The translations under genes and the position numbers were made by a program. From Candidatus Hydrogenedentota bacterium (GTDB lineage Bacteria > Hydrogenedentota > Hydrogenedentia > Hydrogenedentales > SLHB01), in contig BTWA01000023.1 of assembly GCA_045863295.1 (NCBI GenBank), positions 35,519-99,518 of the forward strand: a stretch of 64,000 nt of DNA, written 5' to 3'. Below, in pieces: positions 10,823 through 58,168 of this stretch. Every line of letters starts with the position of its first letter. Position 1 is the first letter of the stretch. A model generated the notes under the pieces. That model was not told where the DNA came from. It did not search any database and worked only from the letters and a program-made list of their open reading frames with translations.

Positions 10823-11130
10823 CCCTACGTCGCCAAGGCTACATAGGGCATGAAGCTCGTTCACACAATAGACCGGCTCTTCTGCGCTCCCTTCTTCGCT
10901 GAAGCTACGAAGGGCGGGAATGCTATGAAGAGCACCACCATTCGGCTTACTCGCTACGCTCGAGCAAATCTAGCCTTCATCCTGCAAGAATTACCGGTTT
11001 GCCATCCGAAGCTCGTTCATACCAGCGACTGGCCCTTCTTCGCTCCCTTCTTCGCTTAAGCTACGAAGGGTGGGAAAGCTACGAAGGGCACCATCCTTCG
11101 CTTAACTCGCTACGCTCGAGCGAAGGATGG
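10823..11130. repeat. One single REP-like palindrome plus two ~114-bp direct repeats of nested palindromes
   Basis: Single unit 10823-10849; direct repeats 10852-10965 and 11008-11121, each with an inner cccttcttcgct..agctacgaaggg inside an outer copy. Confidence 0.85.
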
Positions 11131-11301
11131 TGGAGGCGGCCGCAATTGAGGCCTGTGGAGACTAGTTTTGCAGGTCATTGCACGCCTGCTATCTACAGTG
11201 CACCCAGTGATTCAACACGAATTGGGTTGGCCTCAGCTTTTATTACAATTTATCCGCAATTGCGCACGATTTTGCAGAAAATTACTCCCGTTTTGCTACC
11301 C
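11128..11301 (-). repeat. att-like repeat 1 (degenerate): tmRNA 3'-end core plus element arm
   Basis: tggtggaggcggc core, then diverged homology to 37902 and 57992, ending attactcccgttttgctaccc. Confidence 0.8.
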
Positions 11302-11595
11302 TGAAAGCAAGCGCTGACTGACGCGCAAAAGGCTTCCTCGCGAATTCTGATCCATGCAAACACGTTGACCCAAGCAATGTCCCGTTGGAACTTGGCCGGG
11401 TGGGGTAACGAGCACTCAGATTCAAGCCCCGTCCATTCCGTGCCCTAAGCGATGATCGCGAGTATCAGTAAACCAGGCGGCGCGCGCGACCTACTCGTTC
11501 TCTTCTCCCGATCCAGTTTCCGCGGGTTTCAAACAAAGGAGATTTGCCAACTGACCTGAATCCACTGTGGCGGCAATTGGATTTGTATGTTCAGA

Positions 11596-13053
11596 TCACT
11601 TCCCTTCCGCCGCCCAAGCCTTCATTTGGGCGATGTTCTCCTGGAAAATCCGGGTGCGTTCCGGTTCCCCTTTTCGTGATTCGAGGTAAAGCGCCATATC
11701 GGCGTCGTAGACTGCTTCGGCTTCCGGCGTTTGGCCCTTGTCACCCGTCGCTCGGATCCATGTATCGAGGATGCCGCGCATCTCGACAAGCGTTTCCACA
11801 TAGGCGGAATTATCGGCGAGATTATTCAGTTCCCAAGGGTCAGTCTTTCGGTCGTACAGCTCCTCCTTGGGCCGAGGTGTGACGAACATGCTCTCCGCCG
11901 GATGGCCTGCCAGCTTGCCCTGCGCATACAACTCGCGCAGGCGGATCAAGGTCTCCTTGTCATCCTTGTAGGCGTTTGGCTGGAGGTGGGGTCGGTGGGT
12001 ATAGAAATTCCGGATGTAGGTGTAGCGGCCTTTTCGGACGCTACGGAGGCGTTCCACCGTCTCGTCACATCTATCGCGCGCCGAGATCACGTAATCCCGG
12101 GGCCGGGCCTCCGGCCCGAAAAGTGGCCGGCTTTCCAAGTGCTTGGGGATCGGTATGCCGGCAAAATGCATGGACGTGGCGGCCATGTCGATGTGAGCCA
12201 CCAAATCATGGCGCGTCGTCCCGCCGGGGACGCGACCGGGAGCCCAGACAATGAAGGGGATTCGCACACCCTCTTCATAAACGAATTGCTTGCCCCGTGC
12301 GTGGGTGACACCGTGGTCGGTGATGAAGAGGACCACAGTGTTTTCCGCCAACCCCTCCATCTCCAAACGGGCCATAATCTCACCCACTTCTCGATCGACG
12401 TTCAGGACGGAATTCAGGTACCGTGCCCAATCCTCCCGCATGACCGGATCGTCCGGATAATATGGCGGCAACGTAACCGTCTCCGGGGAGACTGGATTCT
12501 CCACAATCGCCCCGCGCCTCTTGCCACCGCGCAACTGGAACTGCATGAAGAAGGGCTGGTCCGGGTCACGTCCCGACCAATTGCTCCCGTCGTAGAGGTC
12601 GTCCGGGTAGTTGAAGTTGTAATCCGTCTTGCCCGGTTCGTCAGCGTCCGGCCCGGCGCCATTGCAGACATAATAACCGGCCTCTTTAAAGTACTCGGGA
12701 ATCGTGCGCACGGGGGCGGGAAGGTCGTGCTTGATCTCCCCGCGGAAGCTTCGGTGGTTGTGCGCGCCGATGGTCGTCTGGTACATGCCAGTAATCAGGG
12801 CCGACCGGCACGGCGAGCACACCGGACAGGTCACGTAGGCCGAGTCAAAAACCACCCCTTCCCGGGCCAATCGATCCACGTTTGGCGTCTTTATGGTGGT
12901 TTCGCCCTGGTAGCTGAAATGGCAGGACATGTCTTCCGCCACGATCCAGACGATGTTCGGGCGCTGTTGTTCCGCGGCCGCCCCGCCGGTCGTGCTGCTG
13001 AACAGAGACAATGCCCCCGCGCCGCTCGCTTTCAGGAATGATCTTCTACGCAT
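11596..13053 (-). CDS. Tat-exported sulfatase
   Basis: MRRRSFLK start, [15 protein letters not shown]. Confidence 0.9.
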
Positions 13054-13082
13054 GGTCCTTTGTTTCTCCTTGGGAACTTGCG

Positions 13083-14519
13083 TCACGCTTGCTGCCAGTG
13101 AGACTTCCATTGCTCCACGAGAGCCGTTGCGGTTTGGTCCCCTGCCTTCGTCGCCCACACCGTCATTCGGGCTGCCAGGTCGCGTGCCGCTGCAATCGTT
13201 TCAGATTTTCCAAACACGTTGTGTGTATCGGGATCCGGACTCTGACGGTCGTAGAGTTCTGGCGGCCGTGTTGTATTCAGGATCAATTTCCATTCTTTGG
13301 TGACGACGCACCGCTCTCGCATGTCTGGGTCTTTTCCCTGCGGTTGTTTCTCACCTGAGCCTGTTTTGCCCGAGCCGGTATAGGGTAGGTTCTGGATGAG
13401 AGCGTCATCCCGCCATTGAGAGGCGTTCCCGGACAACAACGATTTCATCGTCTCTCCGTGGAGGCCGTCTGGGGGATTGATTCCGCATACGTCCAGAATG
13501 GTCGGACACAAATCGGCGATGCTGACCACGCTGTCTATGCGAACCCCCTCCGGGAGCGTCCCGGGCATGCTCATGAGGAGTGGCACATTAGCCGACTGAT
13601 CATAGCAGAGCCGCTTGTAGTGATCGTTCCAGCGAAAAGGGAAATTCTCGCCGTGATCCGACGTAAATACAACCAGGGTATTCTCGCGCAATTCCAATTC
13701 GTCAAGGAGCGCGAGGAGCCTTCCGATATTCCAGTCCAATCGGTTCACCATAGCGTGATAAACCGCTTGATCATCCGGCTCAATTACACCTCGGTAGATC
13801 GCGATGTTCTCTTCGGGAGCGTCTTTGGTGGTATGGGGGGGATAGAAAGAAAGCCAGCAAGCGAATTTGCGCTCTTTGTTCTTACGAATGAAGTCCAGGG
13901 CGTAATCGGTCTCCACATCGGGGCGGTACTTCCCGACGACGCTTTCCACTTCATTGGTCACGGTCGGATTGCCGGCGATTCGTTCCCTGAACTTGCTGTC
14001 CATCTCACCAGGCGCCGCGAAGAGGGGCTCTTCTTCAATCCAATGCGGCCAACCCGTGTGATACCCGCGCCACAGGTCAAAATAATCAGGGACCGGCTCG
14101 ACTCCCAAATGCCACTTGCCGATGTAGGCCGTCCTATATCCAGACTCACGCAGTGCGCGCGGCCACGCGAACAAGCCGGGCGGCAGCGGAATGTTGTTTT
14201 CCACCACAGTGGTCGCATTTGGGAACAGTCCGGTCACCATGCTGGATCGGCAAGGGGAACATACCGGCTGGGTCACGTAGCACGAGGTGAAGAGCGCACC
14301 CCGTTTGGCCAGCGCATCCAAGTGTGGTGTCTGAACGCGATTGTTGCCATAGCAGCCGAGCGTATCCGTTCTCTGCTGGTCCGTGTTGATAAACACTACA
14401 TTGGGCGCGGTGTCCGGCGTCTCGGGCTTTTCAAGTGCCTCTGCCTGCCGGCAAGATAGGCCCAGCAAAGTCGCGGTTGTTGACCCCAAGAAATAGCGCC
14501 TGTTCAATTGAACATCCAT
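13083..14519 (-). CDS. Tat-exported sulfatase
   Basis: NRRYFLG, DQQR, CSPCRSS..TG, GKWHLG, SDHG. Confidence 0.9.
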
Positions 14520-14725
14520 TGCTTCAATCCCTCCAAGCCCAATATTATCTATTCGCCCCTTAGCATGCATTTATTGCTCGAAAGTGCGTTGGACCAGCGG
14601 AAGACCGGCTGGTCTGATACGCGAAATGGTCTCGTCTGAGCATAGGAAAAGTGATGAGCATGCGAGGCATGAAAAACAATATCGCTTTGTCTTGCGCACG
14701 CAAAGCCATAACAAGGATAAACGAA

Positions 14726-16138
14726 ATGACGAACAAAGCTCTAACGCGTAGGGATTTCCTGGGGCTGTCCGCAGCGGCGGCCAATTTGGCCATTCCAACG
14801 CTTTATGGAGATGCCTCCGCCGGCTCAACAGGTGCGATTCAAAAACCAAATATCATATTCATCATGGCGGACGATTTGGGCTATGCGGATCTGGGCTGTT
14901 ATGGTCAGCCCAAAATAAAGACGCCGCATATCGACCGCCTGGCAGCCGAGGGGATGCGGTTCACGCATTGTTACGCGGGGGCGTCCGTGTGCGCGCCGAG
15001 CCGATCCGTGTTAATGACTGGTTTGCATGGCGGCCATACGACGGTACGCGACAATCATGGCGTAAACGCGCCCACACACGATGGGGAAGAGGGCCGGATC
15101 CCTCTGAAAGAGGACGATGTGACCGTGGCCGAGGTGCTTAAAGAGGCAGGGTATGCCACGGGCATCACGGGCAAGTGGGGCCTGGGCGAGCCTGGCTCTA
15201 CGGGCGTTCCAAATGATCAAGGATTTGATGAATGGTTCGGCTACCTGAATCAGTCTCATGCGGCCGACTATTTCACTGACCACCTCTGGCGAAACAAGAA
15301 CCTTCAAACCATTGAAGCAAACGAAGACGGGCGGCGCGGCGCTTATTCCTGCGATCTTTTTTCCGAATTCAGCCTGGACTTCATCCGAAAGAACCAGGCG
15401 AATCCATTCTTCTTGTATGTGGCCACTACCATTCCCCACAAGAAGCTCGAGGTTCCGGACTTGGAAATCTACACGGAGAAGCCCTGGCCCGATGAAGCGA
15501 AGGTATTTGCGGCGATGGTCACCCGGATGGACACTCATGTGGGGCAGATCATGGACTTGCTCAAGGAACTCGGCCTCGACGAGAAAACGATTGTCTTCTT
15601 CACCTCCGACAACGGTTCGGCCGAGGGCTGGGAGGGGATGTTCGATAGTAGCGGCCCGCTGCGCGATAAGAAGTTCTCCCTCTACGAAGGAGGCATCCGC
15701 TGCCCCATGATTGCACGATGGCCCGGACGGATCCCCGCCGGCGAGGTGAGCGATGCTGTATGGCACTTCGCGGATATCCTGCCGACCGCCGCCACTCTCG
15801 CGGGCGCCCGCGTGCCGAACCGCGTGGACGGCACTAACGTGGCGCCCATTCTCCTTGGCGAAACGGATTCGTTACCCAATAGATTCCTTTACTGGGAAAA
15901 GCATCGCGACGAACCTGTGCGGCTGGAACAGGCCGTACGCTGGGGCGATTGGAAGGGCATCCGGCTCGGCCTCGACAAGCCTCTGGAATTGTACAATCTG
16001 AAAGATGACATTGCTGAAGAGAACGATGTGTCGTCAAGGCATCCCGATATCGTGTCACATATCGAAAGCTACCTCAATACGGCCCGGACGCCGTCACCGT
16101 ATTGGCCTGTGCCGAACGAAACGAAGGAACATCCATGA
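14726..16138 (+). CDS. Tat-exported arylsulfatase
   Basis: TRRDFLG, ADDLGY, CAPSRSVLMTG, SDNG. Confidence 0.9.
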   Translation: MTNKALTRRDFLGLSAAAANLAIPTLYGDASAGSTGAIQKPNIIFIMADDLGYADLGCYGQPKIKTPHIDRLAAEGMRFTHCYAGASVCAPSRSVLMTGLHGGHTTVRDNHGVNAPTHDGEEGRIPLKEDDVTVAEVLKEAGYATGITGKWGLGEPGSTGVPNDQGFDEWFGYLNQSHAADYFTDHLWRNKNLQTIEANEDGRRGAYSCDLFSEFSLDFIRKNQANPFFLYVATTIPHKKLEVPDLEIYTEKPWPDEAKVFAAMVTRMDTHVGQIMDLLKELGLDEKTIVFFTSDNGSAEGWEGMFDSSGPLRDKKFSLYEGGIRCPMIARWPGRIPAGEVSDAVWHFADILPTAATLAGARVPNRVDGTNVAPILLGETDSLPNRFLYWEKHRDEPVRLEQAVRWGDWKGIRLGLDKPLELYNLKDDIAEENDVSSRHPDIVSHIESYLNTARTPSPYWPVPNETKEHP

Positions 16139-16350
16139 CGAACAACATGCGCAATTTCGTCTTCTTCTTCGGAGAGAATTTGGGCAGGTAAACGTTGCGG
16201 TTCACGAGATTTTCAGGCGTGAAAACACCCCAAGCTGAATAGAGGCTGCGTTACCGAACGAGGTATGCCATTCCGTCGTTGGGTGTAGAAATTATTGCAT
16301 AGAGCCAATCATCGCTTTTGGTGCACTCCACACCGCCGCCCTTCGCGATT

Positions 16351-17850
16351 TCATTCCGTGTCGAGGTCGGGATTTCGGACATCATCCAGCGCAATGGGAA
16401 CACGCTGATTGACACTGCGCGGGACCACGCGGAAACTGCGAACAACAAGACCGTCAACATGGCGCGCAAAAAGGGCGTACGCTGGCAAATCGCCAAAGTT
16501 GTTGAATTCGGGATAGCCGTCTTCAAGTTCAGGAATGGGCGATTGGATGTTGAGAACTTCCGGAGCTTCCCGGTAAGAGACATCAAAGTTCTCAAGACGC
16601 ACATTACGGATAAGAAGGCCGGGAATGCCGCTTACGATTGCAGGCGACTCCACGTTGTAGGCGGTAACATCCGATACAGTGATGTCTTCCAACTTGCCCA
16701 TTCTGTTTTTGGTGTCCCATCGGTTGCGATTTCCCAGGCGTATGAACAGGGGTGTCATGACGTTTCGGGCTTTGATTCCTTTGACAGTCACCTTGCTCAC
16801 GTGCGCGCCGTCGACACTCTCGATGGCTACGGCAGACAGCGACCAAGGCCAGACTTCCTCCGTGAAGAGTTCGCAGTCGGAGATATGAACATTGGAAATG
16901 TCTGCCCACGTTTCAGTGCCTATCTTTATGCCGTTTGCGGCACTTCGGATCGCACAATCACGCACCTGGACGTTTTCCATAGGCCGGCTCTTATCTCCAT
17001 TGAAACCGTTCTTGAGCACGATGCCATCGTCGCCTGTCGAAATGAAACAGTGGGAAACCAGCACGTTACTTGAAGCAACGATGTCAATGCCGTCCGTATT
17101 CTCGCCGTGGTAATTGTTGTTGATCACCACGTTTTCTACGTTGACCCGGTCGCACAAATGCAGCAAGAGCGTCCAACCAGGGGAGTTTTCGATAATCAAG
17201 TTATCCAGGCGAATATCCGCCGATTCCTGAAACCGGATCAATGGCGATATACGGTACTCCTTCTTCTTGCGTTTGGCATGGCCGTGCATACGCATCGTTT
17301 CGCTCAGATTGAAGGGCTCAGGCGGCGTCACAGGGGGGTGGGCGCGAGGGGGCTGCCACCAGCTGTGGCCATCCCCCGCAATCCTTCCGGGGCCCTTAAT
17401 TCGGACGTTGTGGGAGTCCTCGCAATAGATGAAATGCATTGGATCGTAATGCGCGCGGTCCTGGCTGGCTCTTAAAACGGCATTTTTCGCAATGTGCAGC
17501 GTGACATTACTCTTAAGGAGAACGGTGCCGCTGACAAAATCTCCCCCCGCAACGCTGACCGTGCCTCCCCCGGCGCGGTGCGCTGCAAGAATCGCATCAT
17601 TGATAGCTGTCGTATTGATGGACTTGCCATCACCGACCGCGCCAAAATCTCTAATGTCGTATACTTTGTCATGCAACGTATCGTCATCAAAGTCAATATA
17701 CAAATCGTAGGGAACATGGCTCAGAAACTCGCCGGGGGACGGGGTGAAAGGGGGCGTGACCTGGGCGTTGCTTTCTCGCCAAACGGAAATTGCAAGAAGA
17801 CATAGCATGGTAGCCATACAACGCCTCTGTATGAGAATAAGGCTTTGCAT
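16351..17850 (-). CDS. Secreted glycoside hydrolase family 28 (polygalacturonase-like)
   Basis: FGAVGDG, NTDGID, GDDGIVLK, GIKIGTE; signal peptide. Confidence 0.88.
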   Translation of the reverse strand: MQSLILIQRRCMATMLCLLAISVWRESNAQVTPPFTPSPGEFLSHVPYDLYIDFDDDTLHDKVYDIRDFGAVGDGKSINTTAINDAILAAHRAGGGTVSVAGGDFVSGTVLLKSNVTLHIAKNAVLRASQDRAHYDPMHFIYCEDSHNVRIKGPGRIAGDGHSWWQPPRAHPPVTPPEPFNLSETMRMHGHAKRKKKEYRISPLIRFQESADIRLDNLIIENSPGWTLLLHLCDRVNVENVVINNNYHGENTDGIDIVASSNVLVSHCFISTGDDGIVLKNGFNGDKSRPMENVQVRDCAIRSAANGIKIGTETWADISNVHISDCELFTEEVWPWSLSAVAIESVDGAHVSKVTVKGIKARNVMTPLFIRLGNRNRWDTKNRMGKLEDITVSDVTAYNVESPAIVSGIPGLLIRNVRLENFDVSYREAPEVLNIQSPIPELEDGYPEFNNFGDLPAYALFARHVDGLVVRSFRVVPRSVNQRVPIALDDVRNPDLDTE

Positions 17851-18109
17851 TGATATACCTTTCGAGAATTGTCCCCACTAGGATTTTTCGTACTCACTTC
17901 GCGGTCACGTTGGTCAATAATACATCGCTAAAGGCGGTCGATACATTATCGCGCCGTCGACAGAGGGTCTCGAAGTGGTTTAACACGGCCTAGAACAGAT
18001 CTTCGGCAATCCAAGCCGCCGGCCTCTTGTTTGCGTTTTTGGTCGCATTGTTGGTGGCAGGGTAGCGCAAATAGCGCTGAGCTGGGTTCGGTATACACAG
18101 ACGCCGCCG

Positions 18110-18330
18110 CCTACACTGCTCAATCCAACGCCAAGGGTTTAACAGGGCGGACAGAATGCGTCAGGGCCTCTCCCAGTTCGATGCCCACTACTCCAGGGAG
18201 CGCAATCATCAAGGTCTCGGAAATCGTCTCACTACACCGGGCGAGGAACTCGGCTGCACCGAAGGTCAAATCGCTTGCCGTAATCTCATCAGCGGTAGGC
18301 TCCGCTACTACTACCCGCAGGCACCATGCT
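18110..18330 (+). pseudogene. Remnant of an IS integrase-core (rve-type) transposase C-terminus; boundaries approximate
   Basis: HYSRERNHQGLGNRL...CRNLISGRLRYYY resembles the HY..ER.HQGLGN...R.RLGGLL.YY tail of this family. Confidence 0.7.
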
Positions 18331-18635
18331 CGCCCCTCCTCGCGCTTTCTGTTTCATAAGCGAACGATGCCTACGCCATGCGTCCAATGGCAGCGGCGCA
18401 AACGCACCAAATCACGATCGAGTAACAAGCCAACAATCGGCCTTAGGCGGTCCGTCTCACAAGGCTGTGATCATCGACTGAAATTACTTGCCATACATCT
18501 TGCTCAAACCACTCCAGAACGCGTACATTATTCTCTGCGGACGCTACACCTTTACACCCCCCCGCGTCACTTTTGGGCCGCTATTAACAGATTGACATCT
18601 CGTCGACGGGGTGCAACAACCAGAGGTCTCAGCCA

Positions 18636-20270
18636 GTGCATAAATCCTCAGCGCTCTCAAGAAGGCAATTCGTTGCGCTGGGCGCGGGACTCGCGGCGGG
18701 CGCCGTAACTACGGGCGCGAAAGAGCCTTCCCCACTGAAAACAGCCGACGTGTGCGTGTACGGCGCAACGGCAAGCGGAATTATGGCGGCCCTCGCGGCA
18801 TCGCGGGAAGGTTGCACGGTCATCGTGGTAGAGCCCAGCCGCTGGCTCGGCGGCATGACTGGGGGCGGCATCAGCAAGATTGACTGGGGACGCGAGGAGG
18901 CTGTCGGGGGCACAGCGCGCACCATTCTCGAGCATCAATACAACAACGCCCAGTACCGCGACGCATTTCAGGCGCTTGTGGCGGAGCACGGCATAGAGGT
19001 TGTCTTCGAGCACCGTCTCAATTCCGTTCGCCGCGACGGCGCGCGCATTACACAAATCACGTTCGATTATGCGCCTCCCGATAAGCTCGGCTGTCCCCCG
19101 CCGCTGCCGAAAGAACGCGAATCCGCTGTGGTGCAGGCATCCGTATTTATTGACTGCTCCTACGAAGGCGACGTGATGGCGGCGAGCGGGGTCGACTACA
19201 CATACGGGCGCGAGTCAGTTGAACAATATGGCGAATCCCTGGCGGGCGTGCGGCCGAATCTGTGGGTATACGACATCGATCCCTATGTGCGGCCGGGCGA
19301 GCCCGCGAGCGGCCTGCTGCCCTGTATTCAGGATCGCGAAATGCCCCCCCTTGGCGCCGCCGACAAACTCACCATGGGCTACTGCTTTCGCTACAAGCTT
19401 GACCTTTCAGGCAAAGGCTTGCCCATCGAGCCCACGGATACCTATGACCCTGCTCAGTTCGAGGTCTATCGCAGGGGGCTTGCGCAGGGCATGGATCTGC
19501 AGCGCTCGCGCAAGATGCCGCGCCTCGGCGAGATTGTCGAGGGCAATGGCCATGTCTACAGGGAGGGGCAGGGGAACACGTATCGGGCCTTGTTGACGAC
19601 TACGGTTTTCGGTAGCAATGCCGAGTATCCCGACGGGAATTGGGAGACGCGCGCGCGAATCTGGAAGTTTCACCAGGACTTCTTCCGGAACCTCACCCAA
19701 TTCCTGCGAACCGATCCAGTCGTGCCTGAAGCGCTGAAAGAGCTGGCTTTGCGCGCGTCGTTTCAACGCGGCATCTTCGACGATACGCAGGGCTGGCCGC
19801 ATCAGCTGTACGTGCGCGAGGCGCGGCGCATGGTTTCCGAATACGTTGTTGCGCAGAAGGACCTCGAAGGCAAAACCGACCCCGAGCGCTCAATCGGCCT
19901 GGCATCGTACGGCGTAGATGACTGGCCCTACGCAACCATCGCCGTCGACGGCAAGGTGGCCTTTAGCGGCGGCGAGTTTTCCATTCTCTATCTGGACGAG
20001 AAGCACAGGGGCATCTACAAGATTCCCTACGACGCGATCACGCCCCGGCGCGGTCAATGCGAAAACCTGCTTGTGCCTGTCTGCTGCTCCGCGAGCCATA
20101 TTGCGATGACTTCCCTGCGCATGGAACCGGTCTGGATGATTCTCGGTGAATCAGCGGGCGTGGCGGCGGCCCTTGCATCGCGCGAGCGCATGAGTGTGCA
20201 AGACGTTTCCTACAGCACGCTGCGCGAAAAGCTGCTCGCGCTGGGACAATGGCTCGAGCGTCCGGCGTAG
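18636..20270 (+). CDS. Tat-exported FAD-dependent oxidoreductase
   Basis: SRRQFV; VCVYGATASG, DCSYEGD, YVREARRM, SLRMEPVWM. Confidence 0.85.
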   Translation: MHKSSALSRRQFVALGAGLAAGAVTTGAKEPSPLKTADVCVYGATASGIMAALAASREGCTVIVVEPSRWLGGMTGGGISKIDWGREEAVGGTARTILEHQYNNAQYRDAFQALVAEHGIEVVFEHRLNSVRRDGARITQITFDYAPPDKLGCPPPLPKERESAVVQASVFIDCSYEGDVMAASGVDYTYGRESVEQYGESLAGVRPNLWVYDIDPYVRPGEPASGLLPCIQDREMPPLGAADKLTMGYCFRYKLDLSGKGLPIEPTDTYDPAQFEVYRRGLAQGMDLQRSRKMPRLGEIVEGNGHVYREGQGNTYRALLTTTVFGSNAEYPDGNWETRARIWKFHQDFFRNLTQFLRTDPVVPEALKELALRASFQRGIFDDTQGWPHQLYVREARRMVSEYVVAQKDLEGKTDPERSIGLASYGVDDWPYATIAVDGKVAFSGGEFSILYLDEKHRGIYKIPYDAITPRRGQCENLLVPVCCSASHIAMTSLRMEPVWMILGESAGVAAALASRERMSVQDVSYSTLREKLLALGQWLERPA

Positions 20271-20316
20271 AAAAGCAAGGATCCCATCCTGTGGCAGGAA
20301 ATTGAAAGGAGAAGCC

Positions 20317-31272: not shown

Positions 31273-31276
31273 CGCG

Positions 31277-46885: not shown

Positions 46886-46915
46886 CGATATAGCTAGTTC
46901 CTGAACAGGCTAACC

Positions 46916-49012: not shown

Positions 49013-49168
49013 ACGGTACGCTTTGTCGCGAGCATCCATGAGGCCCTGAGCCAACAGAGACCTACTGGCGTGGAATCGCGCGGGACACATGGCCTCGTCG
49101 TCCTTTAATCCTGATAAGGAACGGACCCAATTGCCGATTCTTGTGGAGTTTAACCGTGCAAGGTGTAG

Positions 49169-50326: not shown

Positions 50327-50444
50327 ACCTTCACCTGATTAATCAACACGCACATATCTTCGACTTGGCACTTGCGATTCGGAACGATGTGTCGACCACA
50401 GAAAAAGTAAGCCACCGAATACGCACATACCAGGAGACACGTCC

Positions 50445-51488
50445 TCACGTACTCTTCCGTTTCATCGGTCCAAGAAACTGGCTGTACAAGAATCCAAAAA
50501 AAGTAATGCTCCACGCGCCTATCGCCACATAGACGAAGTAAGTTGGTATCTCCGATACAATGGGCATTCCGAGTACATCGGATAAGTTCGCAGTGCATGC
50601 GGTATACATGCCGAGAGGGAACACAGCGCCCCAATAGAGCGGATCGTATCGAAGCGGGTAACGTTTATAAATGTGCCGCCAGATGCCCAATATCACCAAC
50701 ATGGGTATCCACCAGGTCGCAGTTGCCCAAAAGAACATGGTGAAGCCTTTCAAGAAAGGCAACAGCCCAAGTAGTAAAGGCGAATCGACGCTATTTCGGA
50801 TGAGGGCCGTTCCGGCAAGAGTCGAGATCGCCATGGCGCCCATATTGATCCAATATGGAGGCATTAGATCCGATGGTTGGAATTTGAAAAATGTGTAACG
50901 ATAGAAGATAAGAGAGATCACCCATACGTAGAGCATTCCCCCACTTAACCAAAGTGAAAGAGAAAGAAAGTGAACAAATTCACTCTCCGGAAAAACTTGC
51001 TGCCCTACCTGCTCCCCCAATACAGCGACGGATTGTGTTGCCACGACTGCAACAAGCCAACCCCCGTTTATGCCTTGCGCGAGTGGAGGTTTCTCTTCTT
51101 TCACCGTCAAGACGGTAAAGATGCCATAGTTCAACAATACCCATAGAGCAAACCCGATTGCCCACAAGCTACCCGCCCAGAGAGTACTCTGCAAGATGAG
51201 CATGCATTGGCTGCCGAGTACATTGGTACCAGCCACCATCGTGAAAAAACCAACACATCTGTTGTGATCCAGCATGTCTTCGGCCACTGCACGCGGGAAA
51301 CAGACGATACGTAGAGCTGTCATGCCGGCAAGCACCGCATATATAACGATGTTTAGGAAAAGCATTCCTTTGCCCAGCATGGAATAACCATGTTGGAAAG
51401 CGGCAATCGATACGATGCCCGTCGCCATTACCATCGCAAAATAGGCTGGATTCAAATTTCGAATCGAATCTGTTCGAATCGGCATCAC
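50445..51488 (-). CDS. TDT/SLAC1 family anion channel
   Basis: PAYFAMVMATGI, WINMGAMAIS, WGAVFPLGMY. Confidence 0.88.
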   Translation of the reverse strand: MMPIRTDSIRNLNPAYFAMVMATGIVSIAAFQHGYSMLGKGMLFLNIVIYAVLAGMTALRIVCFPRAVAEDMLDHNRCVGFFTMVAGTNVLGSQCMLILQSTLWAGSLWAIGFALWVLLNYGIFTVLTVKEEKPPLAQGINGGWLVAVVATQSVAVLGEQVGQQVFPESEFVHFLSLSLWLSGGMLYVWVISLIFYRYTFFKFQPSDLMPPYWINMGAMAISTLAGTALIRNSVDSPLLLGLLPFLKGFTMFFWATATWWIPMLVILGIWRHIYKRYPLRYDPLYWGAVFPLGMYTACTANLSDVLGMPIVSEIPTYFVYVAIGAWSITFFGFLYSQFLGPMKRKST

Positions 51489-51642
51489 TGACCATGTCCC
51501 TTATCCTGAATGCCCCCAGACGATATGCGCCATTTAGCAACTCTGGCCCCAATATCTCTCCGCAACCGGACACTGTGGCATGCAGGACCTATTCGCTGAG
51601 CACCCCTCATCGAGGCTAACAGGATTCTTGACCATGCACGAA

Positions 51643-51969
51643 TCAGGTTTCTTTTTTCGGCGTGAGGGCATCCCAACAAGCCGTCGCTCCAAGTAAGAAT
51701 TCCAGATTCTCTGACGTGGGTCTTTCACAAACTCTCGCGCTGGTCTCAGTTGCTATCGAGGCACATGCCGGCGAGAAGAACACATGCACTCGGCAATGTA
51801 GGCGTCCGTCCGTCTCGCGCTGGAGAAAAAGAGCCATGTCTTGCGGACATCCTCGCGCCTTGAAAGTACGAAGAAACGCGGTTTTTATTTGCTCGACCTC
51901 TTCTTCCGCCAGAATACCGTCGTCGAGGGTCTTTAGAAACCAATTCTCCGTTGTTTCCCGATTCAACAT
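51643..51969 (-). CDS. Hypothetical protein
   Basis: Co-oriented within the cluster; protein-like composition. Confidence 0.6.
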   Translation of the reverse strand: MLNRETTENWFLKTLDDGILAEEEVEQIKTAFLRTFKARGCPQDMALFLQRETDGRLHCRVHVFFSPACASIATETSARVCERPTSENLEFLLGATACWDALTPKKET

Positions 51970-52020
51970 CGCTACAATCGATCCTTATAGGAATCGACAT
52001 CGTTCGCCGGATAACGCAAC

Positions 52021-52362
52021 CTACTCTGGTTGACCACCGAGGAATACGATTGTCACCAGAAGCACGCAGTCGGACTTTGCTTCAATTGAATGCGTTTTGC
52101 CTCCTTCGAGATAGAGCCACATGCCCGGCACCACAGTCTTTGGTTCGGACTCCACGAAAAAGATCGCTTCACCGCGAAGGCACTGCACGGTAATCGGACC
52201 GTCCACTTTGTGCGGCGGAACCTTGGCGCCGGCCCGTGTAAATAATCGGACTGTTTCGAAATGCCTTGTTTTTACAAGCGCTACAGTGTGGGTATCAGTT
52301 CCGCCGGGGCCAAACGATTTCAGATCGACCGGTGTTCCAGTTGGCGCATGTTCGATTGCCAT
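52021..52362 (-). CDS. Cupin domain protein
   Basis: VPPHKVDGPITVQCLRG; HSIEA. Confidence 0.8.
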   Translation of the reverse strand: MAIEHAPTGTPVDLKSFGPGGTDTHTVALVKTRHFETVRLFTRAGAKVPPHKVDGPITVQCLRGEAIFFVESEPKTVVPGMWLYLEGGKTHSIEAKSDCVLLVTIVFLGGQPE

Positions 52363-52424
52363 CGGAATCCCTCCAAACCTTCACGATTGTTCTGTGTCAA
52401 CGTAACATAATGGAAGCGGCAAAC

Positions 52425-53141
52425 TCACCGAAGACTCGCTTCCTTCGCCAATGCACCCGGAAACAGGATGTTGTTTTCCTTATGAATGTGTTGATGTAGG
52501 TCCAGTTCCAACTCATGAAGGCCGTCCAGAAGCGCACGGTATGTATTGCAGGCCCAATCCGGAGGGCAGTGGGCATCAGTGAGGCGCCGTATTTCTTCTA
52601 GGGCCTTCCCGGAAATGTCATGTTCGGATTCCATCGCCTGAATCGGGTTCTTTAACGTACCAAATGGCATATGCGGCAGAGCGGTGGAGTGCGCCAACTC
52701 CCGTATTACGGGGAATAGCACCCGTTCTTCCTTCGCCATATGTGAGAGTAACTCTTCCGCTAGTTCTGCAACAACAGTCGCAAGCCGAATCAGCCGCGGA
52801 TCCGTATTTCCGTGCACCTTAGCTACTTTCGCTGCCATCGCTTGCAGCCGAGGCAATTCGCTAACCAGGTTGGCATGGTGTACGGCCACAATGTGCTCCG
52901 CAAGTGCGTCAAGAGTGAGTGAGGCGTAATCCGCCGTATCCTCTACGGCTCTCTCGGAATCGCTCTTGTTGATGGATTTTAGTACTTCATCGACGTCGTG
53001 GCCTTTCTTGGCACACGCTTCGGAGAGCGGCCTCTTCCCGCCGCAGCAATAATCGATGCCGAGTTCTTCGAAAATACGCGCCCGGGCTGGGCGTTCTCGG
53101 ACCAATTCCCCGACAGTTGTCGATGAATTCAGTGTAGTCAT
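52425..53141 (-). CDS. ric: Iron-sulfur cluster repair di-iron protein
   Basis: IDYCCGG, HH, HMAKEE..LFP, EHD, HIHKENNILFP. Confidence 0.92.
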   Translation of the reverse strand: MTTLNSSTTVGELVRERPARARIFEELGIDYCCGGKRPLSEACAKKGHDVDEVLKSINKSDSERAVEDTADYASLTLDALAEHIVAVHHANLVSELPRLQAMAAKVAKVHGNTDPRLIRLATVVAELAEELLSHMAKEERVLFPVIRELAHSTALPHMPFGTLKNPIQAMESEHDISGKALEEIRRLTDAHCPPDWACNTYRALLDGLHELELDLHQHIHKENNILFPGALAKEASLR

Positions 53142-55450
53142 TGTTGGTACTCCTTCGTGTTAAGTGCTTCATCATTGGTTAGCGGTTTTGTGTCAATATC
53201 CTGCTCATTCGTGACGGACCATCCGGTCTTGAGTCCGAGGACAAACCAGCCGAGAGCGAGGACGCCGACAGCGAAAATCGTATCGCCAATCACCCGTAGC
53301 CATCGCAATGTATCCATTAGGTCGGTTTGCATGAACTCGGCCGAACGCGCCATCCACATTCCGTCGTTAACGCTCGCCCACGCCTGCAGGATGCCTCGAG
53401 GTAAATCGCTCAACAGCACCATCAACGCCAATCCAATATTGATTGACCAAAAGGCGAAACTGAGCACGGAGGTCTTCCAAACGTTGCGCGCGGCCATCCC
53501 TTTAAGGCAGAACAACATCAGACCGATGGCGAGCATGCCATAGACTCCAAACAGGGCCGTGTGTCCATGAACGGCCGTTGTGTTCAAGCCTTGCATGTAA
53601 TAAAGAGCAATGGGTGGGTTGATGAGAAAACCGAATAGTCCGGCGCCTACCAGATTCCAGAAGGCCACCGCCACAAAGCAATAGACGGGCCATTTGTAGC
53701 CCGAGACCCATCCTTGCAATCGGCTGACGGATAAGTTGCCATAGGCTTCGAAACCGATGAGGACCAGCGGCACAACTTCGAGGGCGCTGAACACGGCGCC
53801 CAACGCGAGGACGGCAGTGGGTGTACCCGAGAAATACAGGTGGTGAAACGTTCCGATGATACCCCCTGAGAGAAAGATGCTGGTAGCAAACAGGACCGCC
53901 GCGGTCGCCGTACGTACCTTTACCAACTTCAATCGGGTAAAAAGGAATGCGATAACTACAGTCGTGAAGACTTCAAAGAACCCTTCGACCCAGAGGTGTA
54001 CCAACCACCAACGCCAGTATTCCGCCATAGCAAGATGTGTTTGCCGCCCCCACATGAGGCCTGCCCCATAAAACAAGGTAATAGCGACACAGGAAATGGA
54101 GAACAGTGCTAACAGATGACGGTTTGGCCCGGGTTGCTGCATGGCGGGCCACAATCCTCTGCCCATGAGAAACAACCAAATGAACAATCCAGCGAATAGG
54201 AACAGTTGCCAGAATCGCCCGAGGTCGACGTACTCATACCCCTGGTGACCGAACCAGAAGTTCATCTCGAGCCCCATTTCTTGTCGGGTACCGTACCAAG
54301 TGCCGAAAAGTGTCCCGATCACAATCAGCAGGAGCGCGCCAAATAGCGCGTTTACCCCCATACGCTGGAACTTCGGTTCTCTGCCCACGACCGCTGGTGC
54401 AAGAAAAAGCCCGGTCGCGAGGAATGCAGTCGCAATCCAAAAAATTGCCAGTTGCGTGTGCCACGTGCGCGTCACGGCATACGGCAAAATCTCGGCCAAG
54501 GGAATGCCGTAGAACCCAGATCCTTCCACAGCATAGTGGGCAGTGACGGCACCCATGCAAACCTGCGTCACAATCAGCGCCATGACAACCCAAAAGTATT
54601 TGAGCGTTGCTTTCATTGACGGTGTAGGGTCAAAAGCCAACAGCGGATCTCTGTCAGGAATCGGCGGCTCCTTTTCCTCGTGTGCTTTCTCCGCAACGTA
54701 ATACCAAGAGAGCGCACCAACCCCAGCGAGGAGCATGATAAAGCTCAGCACAGACCAGACAAGAATTGCAGGGGTGGGTGCATTGTCGATGAAGGGTTCT
54801 GGAGGCCAGTTGTTGGTGTAAGTAACATCAGTGCCTGGCCGATTCGTGCCGCAAGCCCAAGCCGCCCAAAAATAGAATGCAGCTAAGTCGTCACGCCTGC
54901 CTGCATCCGGCAAGACGTTTTTTGGAATGGCATAGGCCTCGCGGAGTTCATCTAGCGATTCATTTCCTCCGTAAAGTGATTTGTAATGCTCCGACACGGC
55001 TGCGATTGCTTGGGCGCGCACGTCGGAGACCATGAGATCGCCCGTTTCCGGGTCGTAAGTATTGGTACGAATCTCGTTCTTGAGTCGAGCCTTCAGAGCG
55101 GCCTGCTCTTCTAGATGGAGATCCTTATAAGCATCGGCGTCATATTCCGATTTGGCCCAGTGCGCCAGGAGCCATTCAGACTCCCGATGCAAAAAGTCTG
55201 CGGACCAATCGGGTGCAACATATGAACCGTGTCCCCAAATCGTTCCTACTTGCTGACCGCCAGTCGACTGCCAGACATTTTGACCATCCTTGATGTTTTG
55301 TCCTGTAAAAAGAACCGCCCCCGATTCCGTGACAACACGATCGGGAATGGGAGGCGCTTCCCGATAGATTTCGAGTCCGTAGTACCCGAGCACGGCGAAC
55401 GAACCGGCCATTACAACGAACAGCCCGATCCATAGTTTGCGGTAGTCCAT
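53138..55450 (-). CDS. norZ: Quinol-dependent nitric oxide reductase (qNor)
   Basis: WGHGSY.APDW, RTWH, HLWVEGFFE, GTFHH, HGH. Confidence 0.93.
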   Translation of the reverse strand: MDYRKLWIGLFVVMAGSFAVLGYYGLEIYREAPPIPDRVVTESGAVLFTGQNIKDGQNVWQSTGGQQVGTIWGHGSYVAPDWSADFLHRESEWLLAHWAKSEYDADAYKDLHLEEQAALKARLKNEIRTNTYDPETGDLMVSDVRAQAIAAVSEHYKSLYGGNESLDELREAYAIPKNVLPDAGRRDDLAAFYFWAAWACGTNRPGTDVTYTNNWPPEPFIDNAPTPAILVWSVLSFIMLLAGVGALSWYYVAEKAHEEKEPPIPDRDPLLAFDPTPSMKATLKYFWVVMALIVTQVCMGAVTAHYAVEGSGFYGIPLAEILPYAVTRTWHTQLAIFWIATAFLATGLFLAPAVVGREPKFQRMGVNALFGALLLIVIGTLFGTWYGTRQEMGLEMNFWFGHQGYEYVDLGRFWQLFLFAGLFIWLFLMGRGLWPAMQQPGPNRHLLALFSISCVAITLFYGAGLMWGRQTHLAMAEYWRWWLVHLWVEGFFEVFTTVVIAFLFTRLKLVKVRTATAAVLFATSIFLSGGIIGTFHHLYFSGTPTAVLALGAVFSALEVVPLVLIGFEAYGNLSVSRLQGWVSGYKWPVYCFVAVAFWNLVGAGLFGFLINPPIALYYMQGLNTTAVHGHTALFGVYGMLAIGLMLFCLKGMAARNVWKTSVLSFAFWSINIGLALMVLLSDLPRGILQAWASVNDGMWMARSAEFMQTDLMDTLRWLRVIGDTIFAVGVLALGWFVLGLKTGWSVTNEQDIDTKPLTNDEALNTKEYQQ

Positions 55451-55476
55451 TTCTCTGTCCAACTTTCTGGTTGCGC

Positions 55477-57348
55477 TTACGCGGATTGTATTTCGTTTGC
55501 AGCAAGTGTCGAACTCGCTTTGTCTATTTCACGTTCACGTGCGGCATTTAGGCCCGCCAGCAATGTTTCAAGTTCTACATCCAACCGCCGCGCGGCGCCG
55601 GATATGGACACTCTTTTCGCAAGAGTCTTGCGGAGTACAGGATTGGCAAGTGGTGTGAAACCGAAGCGGATGAATACCGGTAGCAGGTGTGGGTACGTGT
55701 CCAATACATCGCTCACACGGTTTCCAGGTACGATGGCTTCGCCGTTTGTTATAGGCGTAAATTGAACGTTCATTGCTTGTGAGGTGCTTTCCTTAGTCCA
55801 CCCATTCATGATCCGCCAAAGATGTACGCCCCAGATGCCCAGCGCTGTTACCTCAAGTACCCCGCTAATGCCGGCGAGGGGAAAGGCAATGTCCTGAAAG
55901 TCTGTGAGCACTTGGAACGAGACCCGAATCGCGCAACCGAGGTTTAGCAGGATGAATGGTATCCAGAGTCCTGGCAACCCTCGAATATCCAGTCCTTTCA
56001 GGGTAGGTACAACCTTTGCCGCCACCCCAACGATCATCATGCTGATGAATCCGACCGTTATGGCGTGACGAATGGCGCCGTAGTACGCGTGTGAAAATCC
56101 GATTTCCGCCGCATGGCTACTGGGCGCAAAGGTATGAAGTAGTCCAAACTGATAGACAGGAAGGAACACAGACATGGCCATTGAGATGAAGAGCCAGCAG
56201 TAGGCCGTTCTCAAGAATTTTAGGCTACGATCCGTTTCCTCGGGCTTCGTGTGCAATCGCCATCCCCAAACAAGCAGAACGAGAGAGGCCACCATCACAA
56301 GCACCGCTCCATACCAAAGAGCGGCCCAAGCATGGCCAAGGGTTCGCATGAGGACAAAGCCGATGGCCTCACCGGCGATGGACAGATTCAACAGAACCAG
56401 TACGGCGAGACCACGCCCAGGCCGTGGAGCGGGAAATCCGTAGAAATTATGGAACAGGCGCTGGCTTACCCCCAGGATCATCAACATGGCAAAGCCGTGA
56501 ATCTGTAGGTCGCGTAGGGGTGCTTGCCAGGTTGATACGAGCGATAGAAACACGTCTCGATTCGGAGCTGTCGTAATCAACGTGAAGTACACAGTCCCAT
56601 ACACGGCTTGGATCAGGAACCAACTTAGCGCACTGAATATGTAGTAATCGTAAAAGGCCAGCGGCTTTCCCGAGACGCGCATCGTCGTGCAAATAATCCA
56701 GACAAAGATGCCGATCGCAACGATTTCCAGGATGGATCCCACCACGCCCGCTACAAGTAGCCTCGGCTGGGCGTCGACGAAGGCCTGCGCCCCGGAACGT
56801 ATGACAATGCCGAGAAGCATCATCCAAAGTGTCGATAATGCAAGCCGTGGGTGAGCGAGCGAAGTGTGTTTGAATCGCGGAAAGGCCTGATACGCAAAGC
56901 CCATCACGAACAGACCGACCCATCCGAAAATCTGCGCATGGCCATGCGCATTGACCTCATTGAGGCTAACCGCCGTAAACGATTTGAGAAACCCGATACG
57001 AAGAAGCAGATACGCTCCCCAAGCTGCGCCCAATGTCAGAACAACCGCAATGCCCGCCTTAAAAAAAGGCTGATAGATGGTGTCTGCGATAGGGTCTGAC
57101 GTGGCGACAGGCGCCTTGGCTTCATCAGTGGTGCTTTGCGCGAGCCTCAGTTCCTCCAGCAGATTCTCGATGGGTACCTCGTGGGCACGAGAAAAGAAAT
57201 CCAGTGATTCCATGGGGCCGTCCTTCCCTCCACATCCACGCAAGCCGTAGCGATCAAGAACCGCTCTCAAGTGGGGAGTAGTACGAAGGAGGTCAGGGAT
57301 CATCGTACCGGGTTCGATAAGAGGTGGCTTAGAATTCGTGCTGCTCAT
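55477..57348 (-). CDS. NnrS-like polytopic membrane protein with N-terminal ScdA_N-like and C-terminal DUF1858-like domains
   Basis: GCGG N-domain; HGHAQIFGW, HGF, RHAITVGF; VSDVLDTYP...GF C-domain. Confidence 0.7.
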   Translation of the reverse strand: MSSTNSKPPLIEPGTMIPDLLRTTPHLRAVLDRYGLRGCGGKDGPMESLDFFSRAHEVPIENLLEELRLAQSTTDEAKAPVATSDPIADTIYQPFFKAGIAVVLTLGAAWGAYLLLRIGFLKSFTAVSLNEVNAHGHAQIFGWVGLFVMGFAYQAFPRFKHTSLAHPRLALSTLWMMLLGIVIRSGAQAFVDAQPRLLVAGVVGSILEIVAIGIFVWIICTTMRVSGKPLAFYDYYIFSALSWFLIQAVYGTVYFTLITTAPNRDVFLSLVSTWQAPLRDLQIHGFAMLMILGVSQRLFHNFYGFPAPRPGRGLAVLVLLNLSIAGEAIGFVLMRTLGHAWAALWYGAVLVMVASLVLLVWGWRLHTKPEETDRSLKFLRTAYCWLFISMAMSVFLPVYQFGLLHTFAPSSHAAEIGFSHAYYGAIRHAITVGFISMMIVGVAAKVVPTLKGLDIRGLPGLWIPFILLNLGCAIRVSFQVLTDFQDIAFPLAGISGVLEVTALGIWGVHLWRIMNGWTKESTSQAMNVQFTPITNGEAIVPGNRVSDVLDTYPHLLPVFIRFGFTPLANPVLRKTLAKRVSISGAARRLDVELETLLAGLNAAREREIDKASSTLAANEIQSA

Positions 57349-57405
57349 TGCCCAATCTTTCTTCTATAATCGCATGCTGTTCGAGGTTTATGTTCGAAAA
57401 AAAAC

Positions 57406-57822
57406 CTACAAGGTGCCTACCGGCACACGGTTCCCTACTATGTCGGCCAAGGTCGATTCCTTAAGCATTGCTAGGTAGTCGTTTCGAACTGCAACCCATC
57501 GGTGATGCATCGCGCACGGTTCGGCGGAGGAACAAGATTCTTTTCCCATAAAACACCCCTCCCATCGACTTACATGATCGACAGGCTCAACGACGTCGAA
57601 AAGGCTTATCTTTTCTGGCGGACGCGCAAGCTGGAACCCACCACCCTTTCCCTTTTGAGAGCAAACGATGCCAGAGTGAATCAATCCTTGGAGCAACTTT
57701 CCTAAGTAGTTTTGGGGCGCTCCAATCCGCTCCGCGATGCTTGAAGCACCCTGGAACTCACCGGGGCTCTCAGCGAGGACTGCCGTCGCTCTTATCGCGT
57801 GCAACGCGGTTTTGGAGATCAT
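57406..57822 (-). CDS. Rrf2 family Fe-S regulator
   Basis: YLGKLL, SQKGKGGGFQL, C-x6-C-x5-C. Confidence 0.9.
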   Translation of the reverse strand: MISKTALHAIRATAVLAESPGEFQGASSIAERIGAPQNYLGKLLQGLIHSGIVCSQKGKGGGFQLARPPEKISLFDVVEPVDHVSRWEGCFMGKESCSSAEPCAMHHRWVAVRNDYLAMLKESTLADIVGNRVPVGTL

Positions 57823-57834
57823 GATGTAAATCCT

Positions 57835-57876
57835 TAATCGCATGCGATTATATCAAAATTGAAGCCGTCTCGTCAA
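57835..57876 (-). promoter_or_regulatory. sigma70 promoter of the Rrf2 gene overlapped by a perfect 16-bp palindrome
   Basis: Minus strand TTGACG-18-TATAAT; taatcgcatgcgatta at 57835-57850. Confidence 0.7.
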
Positions 57877-57991
57877 TAGGCCTGGCATCGCCTACTCCGC
57901 GGTGGTATAGCCCGGAATTGGGCGCATTCTCACGAGTTTGCAGAAGTTGATCGGAGTCGGTAGTTGTAACATATTGAAAATAAATAACTTA

Positions 57992-58168
57992 TGGTGGAGG
58001 CGGCGGGAATCGAAGCCTACGCAGGCCAGTTTTGCAAGTCATTGTACGCCAATTATTTATGACGCAAGTGGCTGAATCAAAACGGGTTGGATCCGTCTCG
58101 CCTCTTATCACGATTTATCACGATTGCACACGTTTTTGTAGAAAATTGCTCCCGTTTTGCTCCCGCGA
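57992..58168 (-). repeat. att-like repeat 3: tmRNA 3'-end core plus element arm
   Basis: Same 23-bp core as 37902; about 150/177 identical to repeat 2 by manual count, no indels. Confidence 0.9.

Follow-up and report, generated by a model that had tools for sequence, protein, structure and literature searches.

How did the metabolic genes between 11.1 and 58.2 kb of this stretch of DNA come to be punctuated by copies of a single repeat, and can the blocks so delimited still move? We addressed this question in the window, by which we mean the whole 64,000-nucleotide stretch analysed, which forms the right-hand 64 kb of contig C23 of a Candidatus Hydrogenedentota genome (G000), a metagenome bin of 88 contigs with an assembly size of 6.3 Mb and a contamination of 2.24%. 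Genome sets of 54 genomes (family) and 133 genomes (order) were searched for comparison; the closest genomes compared belong to other genera, the genus of G000 itself being unrepresented, and sequencing runs were examined as assembled contigs only, in which rare forms are invisible. The answer that we consider likely is that at least four blocks, acquired or exchanged horizontally, are stacked in tandem between 11.1 and 58.2 kb, having accreted serially, by site-specific recombination, at the 3' end of ssrA, the gene for transfer-messenger RNA (tmRNA).

A repeat search of the window returned a single repeat family with three direct copies of 184 nt, at 11121–11304, 37895–38078 and 57985–58168, two of them 63% and 84% identical to the reference copy, which confirms the three direct repeats reported in the preliminary description of this DNA. 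By BLAST, copy 2 was 84.7% identical to copy 3 over 177 nt, and copy 1 was 79.3% identical to copy 2 over 174 nt and 74.3% identical to copy 3 over 175 nt. The alignment revealed that each copy consists of a 23-nt core followed, on the plus strand, by a conserved arm of ~150 nt. As described previously, copies 2 and 3 have the exact core, and copy 1 retains 13 contiguous bases of it (19 of 23 positions overall). The flanks to the left of the three cores are unlike each other, as had also been remarked, save that ~20 nt to the left of copy 3 recur to the left of a core in G008, a genome of another genus (92.5% identity over 40 nt). The longest exact stretches common to the copies are 28 and 31 nt. 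Further, a fourth, decayed arm was detected at ~23659–23810, with 71.5% identity to copy 1 over 137 nt (BLAST) and a score of 91.6 bits (E 9e-26) with R1, a sequence-only model of the arm with which we searched genomes for arms; its core is beyond recognition. Given this arm, what had been taken for a single 26.6-kb block comprises at least two.

The most conserved part of the arm is a tandem repeat spaced by 11 nt, GGGAGCAAAAC GGGAGCA, and we refer to its 18-nt kernel, two GGGAGCA units spaced 11 nt (GGGAGCAAAACGGGAGCA), as motif M. Junctions 2 (37902–38078) and 3 (57992–58168) each combine the exact core with an arm that carries an exact motif M, whereas in junction relic 1 (11128–11304; 136 bits with R1) the motif has two mismatches. 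The decayed cores of relic 1, at 11128, and of junction relic X (23659–23810), at ~23.7 kb, lie on the minus strand, as do the exact ones at 37902 and 57992. No tRNA, tmRNA or other RNA family was found in the window with ARAGORN and Rfam, and the arm shows no likeness to the tmRNA body by BLAST. An RNA interpretation of the arm itself was rejected, since Rfam returned no match for it and a comparison of 11 arms revealed no fold that is conserved (consensus fold −9.5 kcal/mol; covariation term +0.22; compensatory pairs 1 of 15), and we take it to be a putative protein-binding DNA site. A sigma-54 promoter reading of the motif was excluded on inspection by its spacing.

The origin of the core was found on another contig of the same genome. 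The 23-nt core (TTCGATTCCCGCCGCCTCCACCA, minus strand) occurs exactly three times in the 6.3-Mb assembly, and a reversed-pattern control gave no occurrence; two of the sites are in the window (37902–37924 and 57992–58014), and the third is the 3' end of ssrA on contig C19. This gene (C19:1531–1888, minus strand, 183 bits, full length) is the sole tmRNA gene of the genome and ends in the exact core, which bears out the earlier proposal that the core is the end of a tmRNA gene. The copies in the window match ssrA until a point inside the T-loop, where, after ...AATCGAA, the gene continues with CCCGCG and the copies with GCCTA. Judged by the alignment, a match that ends within the T-loop is the pattern of an integration crossover rather than that of a gene duplicate. 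The genome, therefore, has an intact ssrA together with displaced 3' fragments in the same orientation, which is the configuration recognised by the island finder Islander, provided that C19 and the window are linked as we propose below.

We next consider whether the stretch is inserted. The conserved chromosomal boundary on its left is the TrmO gene (9714–10487, plus strand; PF01980, E 1.7e-38). In G008, the TrmO of which is 82% identical, TrmO and ssrA lie 4 kb apart on one contig and in the same relative orientation, and therefore all DNA from copy 1 rightwards is inserted relative to G008. The 50 nt to the left of copy 1 match the flank downstream of ssrA in G008, with 80% identity over window positions 11075–11149, and a stretch with a small GIY-YIG gene (10556–10864, minus strand; PF01541, E 1.7e-14) is homologous to L079:10246–10560, which is directly downstream of ssrA in G008. 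G008 has a small array of its own, comprising a core 0.7 kb from ssrA, the arm of which is homologous, and a core beside TrmO, which has an arm of a second type. In G057 and G058, which belong to the genus of G008, ssrA is 96% identical to that of G008, and the sequences diverge at the base that follows CCA; on the other side, the homology among the three genomes stops ~10 nt past the TrmO stop codon. Because of the G008 array and of this divergence at the CCA end, we regard the interval between TrmO and ssrA as hypervariable, with breakpoints at the core, and the modules are, as had been anticipated, not syntenic core genome in the relatives. No arm or integrase was found in the 4.5 kb downstream of ssrA in G057, and in G043 (TrmO 74% identical) ssrA is on another contig and has no arm near it. 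Hairpin-rich local repeats at 9555–9595 and 10814–11124 surround the GIY-YIG gene and abut copy 1; they comprise a 117-nt unit present twice in tandem and a 41-nt unit present four times, and the flank beside copy 1 contains local 156-nt tandem repeats (D2/D3). A genome-wide repetitive extragenic palindromic (REP) family was ruled out for them, as their 20-nt kernel has only five copies in the genome.

The blocks between the repeats are A1 (11305–23658), A2 (23811–37901) and B (38079–57991). In agreement with the preliminary description, no recombinase, relaxase or replication Pfam match was obtained among the 38 long open reading frames (ORFs) between the repeats. In a scan of the whole genome, all matches to PF00589 (nine) and PF00239 (three) fell off C23, C55 and C17, the last two being contigs that continue the window to the right or duplicate its end (see below), so that C23 as a whole has no match to either family; the three serine recombinases of the genome are on C16 and C65. 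Next to ssrA, however, C19 encodes an intact tyrosine recombinase of 375 aa (315–1439), 91 nt past the CCA end of ssrA and on the same strand. It matches PF00589 at 118 bits, with XerA/XerC-type models and structures as its best matches, and scores 66 and 37 bits against the NCBIfam integron-integrase models, for which the cut-offs are 265 and 435. An integrase beside ssrA, off the window, had been predicted: the gene is there, intact and in the predicted orientation, but on C19, and its link to the window is deduced rather than assembled. A tyrosine integrase within the island is thus found for the ssrA-adjacent element and is absent from the blocks.

The integrase region and the arms share sequence. 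TCGCGGGAGCAAAACGGGAGCAA lies directly upstream of the integrase start codon, and the same 23 nt end arms 2 and 3 distally. Motif M occurs exactly four times in the 6.3 Mb, always in the orientation of ssrA (controls, none): in the region upstream of the integrase gene, in arm 2, in arm 3 and at an orphan site at 33842–33859. We therefore propose, from these shared motifs, that motif M may be an arm-type binding site of the C19 integrase, present on both sides of the attP core. Each block of G000 has a core at both ends and an arm with motif M at its far end only. The orphan motif (minus strand, no core nearby) sits between the convergent genes for a sigma-54 activator and a REC-HD protein and may mark a further, wholly decayed junction dividing block A2, which is possibly two blocks; a junction with a decayed core at 33842 was sought by inspection and was unconvincing.

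We propose the following scheme for these features. The attP of an incoming element would consist of a copy of the 23-nt end of ssrA, from the T-loop to CCA, between two arms bearing motif M. Integration would restore ssrA, and the far end would keep a junction composed of the element's ~150-nt arm and the displaced core; the repeats in the window would be those far-end junctions. The entry of new elements at ssrA would push older ones towards TrmO, and the older elements would have lost their integrase side, or else the blocks arrived never having had one. Going away from ssrA, the first two cores retain 23 of 23 positions each, the third is unrecognisable and the fourth retains 19 of 23. The distance of the blocks from the genome in tetranucleotide composition declines in the same direction, from the 99.4th percentile (the element to the right of copy 3) through the 96.6th (block B, GC content 0.527 versus 0.565 for the genome) and the 90th (A2) to the 43rd (A1). 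The core decay and the composition gradient together suggest serial accretion, with the oldest block, bounded by relic 1, farthest from ssrA and ameliorating, and with junction 3 as the youngest in the window.

The arm is not peculiar to G000. R1 found arms in 7 of the 54 family genomes and 9 of the 133 order genomes, across three families. In all four genomes in which an arm shares a contig with ssrA (G008, G015, G016 and G069), the arms lie 0.7–13 kb downstream of ssrA in the same orientation, if the core-ended contig start of G069 is read as the 3' end of ssrA. Cores follow ssrA at 6.5 and 12.4 kb in G015, at 6 kb in G016 and at 5.1 and 12.8 kb in G069. The blocks of the relatives carry fucosidase/apiosidase genes, a radical-SAM/ParB-methylase set, AAA_14-DUF4143 and TOTE-type defence genes, and they lack integrases, except for one unrelated integrase in G015 beside a core with another arm type. 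In G014, G015, G055 and G069, the sequence directly past the core is also conserved, which indicates that these blocks keep both arms; the near-side arm carries motif M ~90 nt from CCA in G014, G015 and G069 and with three mismatches in G055. In G014, G015 and G069, motif M, exact or with one mismatch, flanks blocks on both sides of the cores. The motif occurs nowhere else in the genomes of G014, G015, G016 and G069, and at one mismatch or fewer it was not found in G055. In G014 and G015, the bases that follow the motif give a hint of what may be the decayed start of an integrase gene.

The same ssrA core is also followed by other sequences. A second arm family was observed after it in two genera (L079:6807–6960 in G008 and L086:18578–18740 in G055), and a third arm type is present in G015 (L082:17405–17427), where the core is immediately preceded by an integrase gene. 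Several element families compete for the ssrA site. The exact 20-mer of the arm motif gave two chance matches in a genome-contig collection; the true relatives escaped it, as the motif in them ends in GCAT and not in GCAA. A 19-mer search of metagenome contigs returned 30 loci, none with arm homology, and a gapped motif pattern returned six loci, of which four were relatives already found and two (L101 and L102) were due to chance. Among the 19-mer loci, soil metagenome contigs share a context around the word (…GGTCAG-motif-ACACCA…; L052, L053, L056–L058, L061, L063, L064, L068, L070, L072–L074 and L078) that bears no relation to the arm and lies near neither a tRNA nor an integrase; it is a separate conserved element. 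We also note that the arm-carrying contigs of G016 and G069, which belong to the family of G000 (L098 and L103), are titled "uncultured Nitrospiraceae bacterium", a label that looks wrong.

To the right of copy 3, the window contains the start of an element that is present twice in the genome (58613–64000), encoding an AEP primase and an 821-aa ATPase with weak TraD/TrwB/VirB4 matches (Pfam, NCBIfam). From 58613 on, the window shares 88% identity with the end of C17 (C17:1–5381, 5.4 kb), and C23 and C17 both overlap the 25.5-kb contig C55 by 55 nt, which gives the two-copy element a length of at least 31 kb. Its genes encode the AEP primase, two large ATPases (weakly TraD/VirB4/CedD-like), a Ser/Thr kinase and a SUFU-like protein. 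The TraD/TrwB/VirB4-like matches have E values of 4e-7 to 3e-4, far below the cut-offs; a Pfam match at E 1e-4 or better was lacking for 20 of the 25 ORFs scanned in C55 and at the beginning of C17, and no relaxase was found in Pfam and NCBIfam scans of the ORFs on the window, C55 and the start of C17. The mobility genes that had been placed to the right of copy 3 thus amount to the primase and the below-cut-off ATPase, and the description of this DNA as resembling an integrative and conjugative element (ICE) is weak, its second copy moreover having neither arm nor core.

The path from the window to ssrA would run from C23 through C55 to C19. C23 leads into C55 only, and C55 is a collapsed two-copy contig without an onward edge among the suffix-prefix overlaps. 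C19 begins 314 nt past the integrase stop codon, at the end of an insertion sequence. Joining C23 to C19 via suffix-prefix overlaps failed, and so, on inspection, did pairing insertion-sequence ends by target-site duplication. Six contig ends are closed by a shared terminal sequence of ~50 nt (C19:1–54; also C3, the far end of C19, C22, C36 and C63), which is probably an insertion-sequence end and on C19 lies 260 nt past the integrase gene.

We then turned to contigs assembled from public sequencing runs. Parts of window positions 33000–42999 are present in 22 of the 24 listed runs, from 14 studies of sludge, wastewater and bioreactor samples, and one run, X1, contains 99% of the words sampled from these positions and may be the source run. 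A contig of this probable source run spans core 2 (36382–38073). Another X1 contig carries 70 different letters before 37893, absent from the assembly and with a terminator-like hairpin 9 nt from the core; this alternative neighbour of core 2, seen in a single contig, may come from a co-resident strain in which the same arm stands at a different junction. Contigs of run X6 cover the block B side from 37969 on and nothing of A2, and we draw no inference from them. Joints listed at 35.5–36.4 kb were rejected as conserved kinase-domain cross-matches from other organisms.

Several observations weigh against serial accretion as we propose it. First, the GIY-YIG stretch is next to ssrA in G008 and farthest from ssrA in G000, and a strict rule that the oldest is the farthest fits it only if the stretch is a block of its own or was inherited differently; the age gradient itself could partly mirror differences between the incoming elements. 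Second, the C17 copy of the two-copy element has neither arm nor core, and therefore arm 3 may not be that element's own end. Third, the window (C23) and ssrA (C19) are on different contigs, linked only by synteny and shared motifs. Fourth, no close relative of the integrase was found, its best matches being 35% identical among 40 relatives and ~30% identical in the species collection (20 loci); the eight other arm-bearing genomes lack this integrase, and its pairing with the arm would follow from the shared motif. A tblastn search with the integrase against the metagenome loci and the loci of G057, G032 and G119 gave only a 51-residue match, in L071, and the ORF adjoining ssrA in G016 showed no likeness to it by BLASTP. 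Fifth, the nitric-oxide cluster of block B is shared with relatives, at 72–90% amino-acid identity with G008 and 65–83% with G005, and its cargo is therefore clade-typical rather than foreign. Even so, we retain serial accretion at ssrA as the likely history of the stack, and the cargo of its blocks is accessory, not alien.

Whether the stack is still active is a separate matter. Because the blocks of G000 have neither an integrase nor an integrase-side arm, they have no means of independent movement. Their perfect cores and motifs make copies 3 and 2 plausible partners for the ssrA-side site, and it is possible, if on balance doubtful, that the resident integrase still pairs that site with one of them and so excises the proximal element, either by itself or with block B carried along in cis. 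As far as their sequences go, copies 2 and 3 could plausibly undergo nested excision or cassette-like shuffling. The distal junctions look dead, and we take the distal blocks to be fixed.

A stronger version of this idea, which we consider unlikely, holds that the locus is a live platform, at which the ssrA-side integrase continues to excise and reshuffle cis- or trans-mobilisable blocks, one at a time or as nested composites, and to exchange them between cells, in the manner of a very large integron. Besides the perfect cores and motifs M of copies 2 and 3, it could call upon the integrase-less blocks with both arms in G014, G015, G055 and G069; upon the block next to a given core, which differs between genomes that have a block in common (the radical-SAM/ParB-methylase set in G014 versus G015, AAA_14 in G055 versus G069); upon the GIY-YIG stretch, found at opposite array ends in G000 and G008; and upon the X1 contig that joins sequence absent from the assembly to the core 2 side at 37893. 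However, among the joints listed for the contigs over 23000–42999, which are blind to rare forms, there was none between cores, and no circle or deletion junction was seen, so that the excision of nested circles envisaged in the preliminary description has so far found no support. The blocks of G000, moreover, lack the integrase-side arm, the cognate integrase was found in only one of the nine arm-bearing genomes, and the junction decay and composition gradient favour long residence. The blocks are also multi-operon units with their own regulators and not promoterless cassettes, and with two oldest junctions that have decayed, the term "cassette array" applied to this locus earlier was an overstatement. 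An extension of the same idea to the order as a whole, an ssrA docking platform in which integrase-less blocks of 0.7–20 kb with the same two arms bearing GGGAGCAAAAC-GGGAGCA would be swapped, from genome to genome and from one array position to another, by a rare trans-acting Xer-like integrase on a helper element, we likewise regard as improbable.

The remaining alternatives fare considerably worse. It has very little probability in our judgement that the stretch is native chromosome in which a dispersed regulatory, RNA or REP-like repeat happens to resemble a tmRNA end and the blocks were never inserted. Part of the block B cargo is indeed at clade-typical identity in related genera, and the composition of block A1 is typical of the genome, but the core equals the end of ssrA over 23 nt and the match stops in the T-loop, as is seen at integration crossovers, the units in nine genomes are confined to ssrA-linked arrays and to one orientation, no RNA family or fold was found, and G008 lacks the blocks between TrmO and ssrA; this reading is largely refuted. 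It is just as hard to credit that the structure is an assembly or binning artefact, with contigs of different strains or organisms joined at core and arm or with C19 foreign, for although G000 is a fragmented metagenome bin with some contamination and the Logan contigs of the source run break in arm 2, at the 31-nt stretch common with arm 3, the longest shared stretches (28 and 31 nt) are shorter than the 55-nt contig overlaps of the assembly, core 2 is spanned by a source-run contig, similar arrays are found on single contigs in four other genomes, and a 23-nt stretch containing the motif ties C19 to C23.

The blocks carry the following gene sets, as annotated with Pfam. Block A1 encodes four sulfatases, a GH28 protein, an FAD oxidoreductase and a PhoD-like phosphatase; the best matches of the FAD oxidoreductase are in distant genera (68–69% identity), with 36–43% in near ones. 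Block A2 encodes an HD protein, an RND efflux trio (OEP, AcrB-type and HlyD-type), the sigma-54 activator, the REC-HD protein and a MEDS-PAS histidine kinase. Among the matches listed for the kinase in the 54 family genomes, which leave out 386 weaker ones, the longest covers residues 30–744 at 39% identity, and no full-length ortholog was found among them. Block B encodes a methyltransferase, a molybdenum oxidoreductase with 4Fe-4S and Rieske proteins, MarR, CLC and SLAC1/TehA anion channels, DUF488, Rnk and P450-like proteins, and a nitric-oxide stress cluster of ScdA, quinol NorB, NnrS-DUF1858 and Rrf2. Within it, at 39355–43968 and 44942–51488, the molybdopterin oxidoreductase, the 4Fe-4S dicluster protein and the small Rieske protein occur together with the CLC-CBS and SLAC1/TehA anion channels and the short P450-like protein. 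The ScdA-NorB-NnrS-Rrf2 cluster is collinear in G008, on a 5.3-kb contig of its own, and in G005, where it is on a contig other than that of ssrA; neither the core nor motif M was found around it in the stretches fetched from these two genomes. The region upstream of the Rrf2 gene, which is NsrR-like, is conserved in three genera (57844–57905; L104:4990–5060; L105:15337–15400) and contains the palindrome ATCGCATGCGAT; its homology stops ~90 nt before core 3. Outside the stack, just to the left of TrmO, a 1382-aa protein (5066–9214, minus strand) has a sacsin-type/HATPase N-terminus and a NOV_C domain in a stretch of lower GC content (~0.52), and may be the product of a defence or conflict gene.

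Like an integron, the locus has one recombinase gene heading an array of recombinase-less units separated by repeated sites. Unlike an integron, it has no attI/Pc platform and no imperfect palindrome of the attC type (no fold was seen in the 11 arms), its units are multi-operon blocks of 12–20 kb, and its sites derive from ssrA. Cis-mobilisable elements (CIMEs) are blocks without integrase or transfer genes that are flanked by att sites of a neighbouring integrase-bearing element, and the composite can in principle excise from the outer sites. CIMEs and their tandem accretion with ICESt1-type elements of Streptococcus were reportedly described by Pavlovic and colleagues in 2004, and cis-mobilisation is said to have been shown experimentally. 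The blocks of G000 resemble CIMEs in having no recombination or transfer genes. Whereas CIMEs keep both att sites of their helper, the blocks of G000 keep only the far-side arm, and the both-armed blocks of the relatives fit the definition better.

The closest precedent among the sources used here is Dehalococcoides. In the sections of McMurdie et al. (2011; PMC3146451) that concern these islands, a 20-bp repeat of the end of ssrA delimits multiple tandem islands downstream of this single-copy gene; the conserved flank measures 15 bp, insertion takes place in the T-loop, and the cargo is metabolic. An integration module is missing from 15 islands, which in the authors' discussion may be cis-mobilisable and moved through accretion, or else be fixed remnants. 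The recombinase there is the serine integrase DsiB, encoded in a six-gene module (PMC3146451). Tandem ssrA islands, T-loop insertion, metabolic cargo and integrase-less members are thus common to both systems as far as that account describes them. In contrast to DsiB and the 15-bp flank, the locus studied here has an Xer-like tyrosine recombinase and an arm of ~150 nt with a tandem motif; it belongs to another phylum, and its cargo consists of sulfatases, efflux and nitric-oxide stress genes instead of reductive dehalogenases. In the relevant parts of the Islander survey (Hudson et al. 2015; PMC4383910), target enrichment is highest for the tmRNA gene, attP spans ~250 bp and the crossover falls in the T-stem/loop region; the arrays recorded there require an integrase for each island, with 125 tandems of at least two islands and four of at least three among 3919 islands. 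The intact target gene with its same-orientation displaced 3' fragments, and the variable presence of inserted DNA in relatives, with breaks at the core (G008, G057 and G058), agree with the islands of that survey, but the blocks here are integrase-less and would be missed by its array rule as stated in those parts. Tandem accretion at ssrA, including that of integrase-less blocks, is, on the evidence of these sources, which came from literature searches not directed at Hydrogenedentota, known from Dehalococcoides, and the advance made here is one of breadth and detail, not of kind.

Overall, the locus indicates that an uncultured wastewater bacterium gathers at least ~47 kb of accessory metabolism at one chromosomal site, where it holds sulfatases with a pectin-type hydrolase, RND efflux with its regulators and nitric-oxide defence. 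For a phylum without genetic tools, this provides a defined att site (core, arm and 18-nt motif) and a candidate integrase, and the arm model is a practical marker for integrase-less islands that integrase-based finders skip. If the order-wide docking platform were true, it would constitute a "macro-integron" serving gene sets for polysaccharide degradation, efflux, nitrosative stress and defence against phages. Serial island accretion is a known route of genome growth, seen here in a little-studied phylum.

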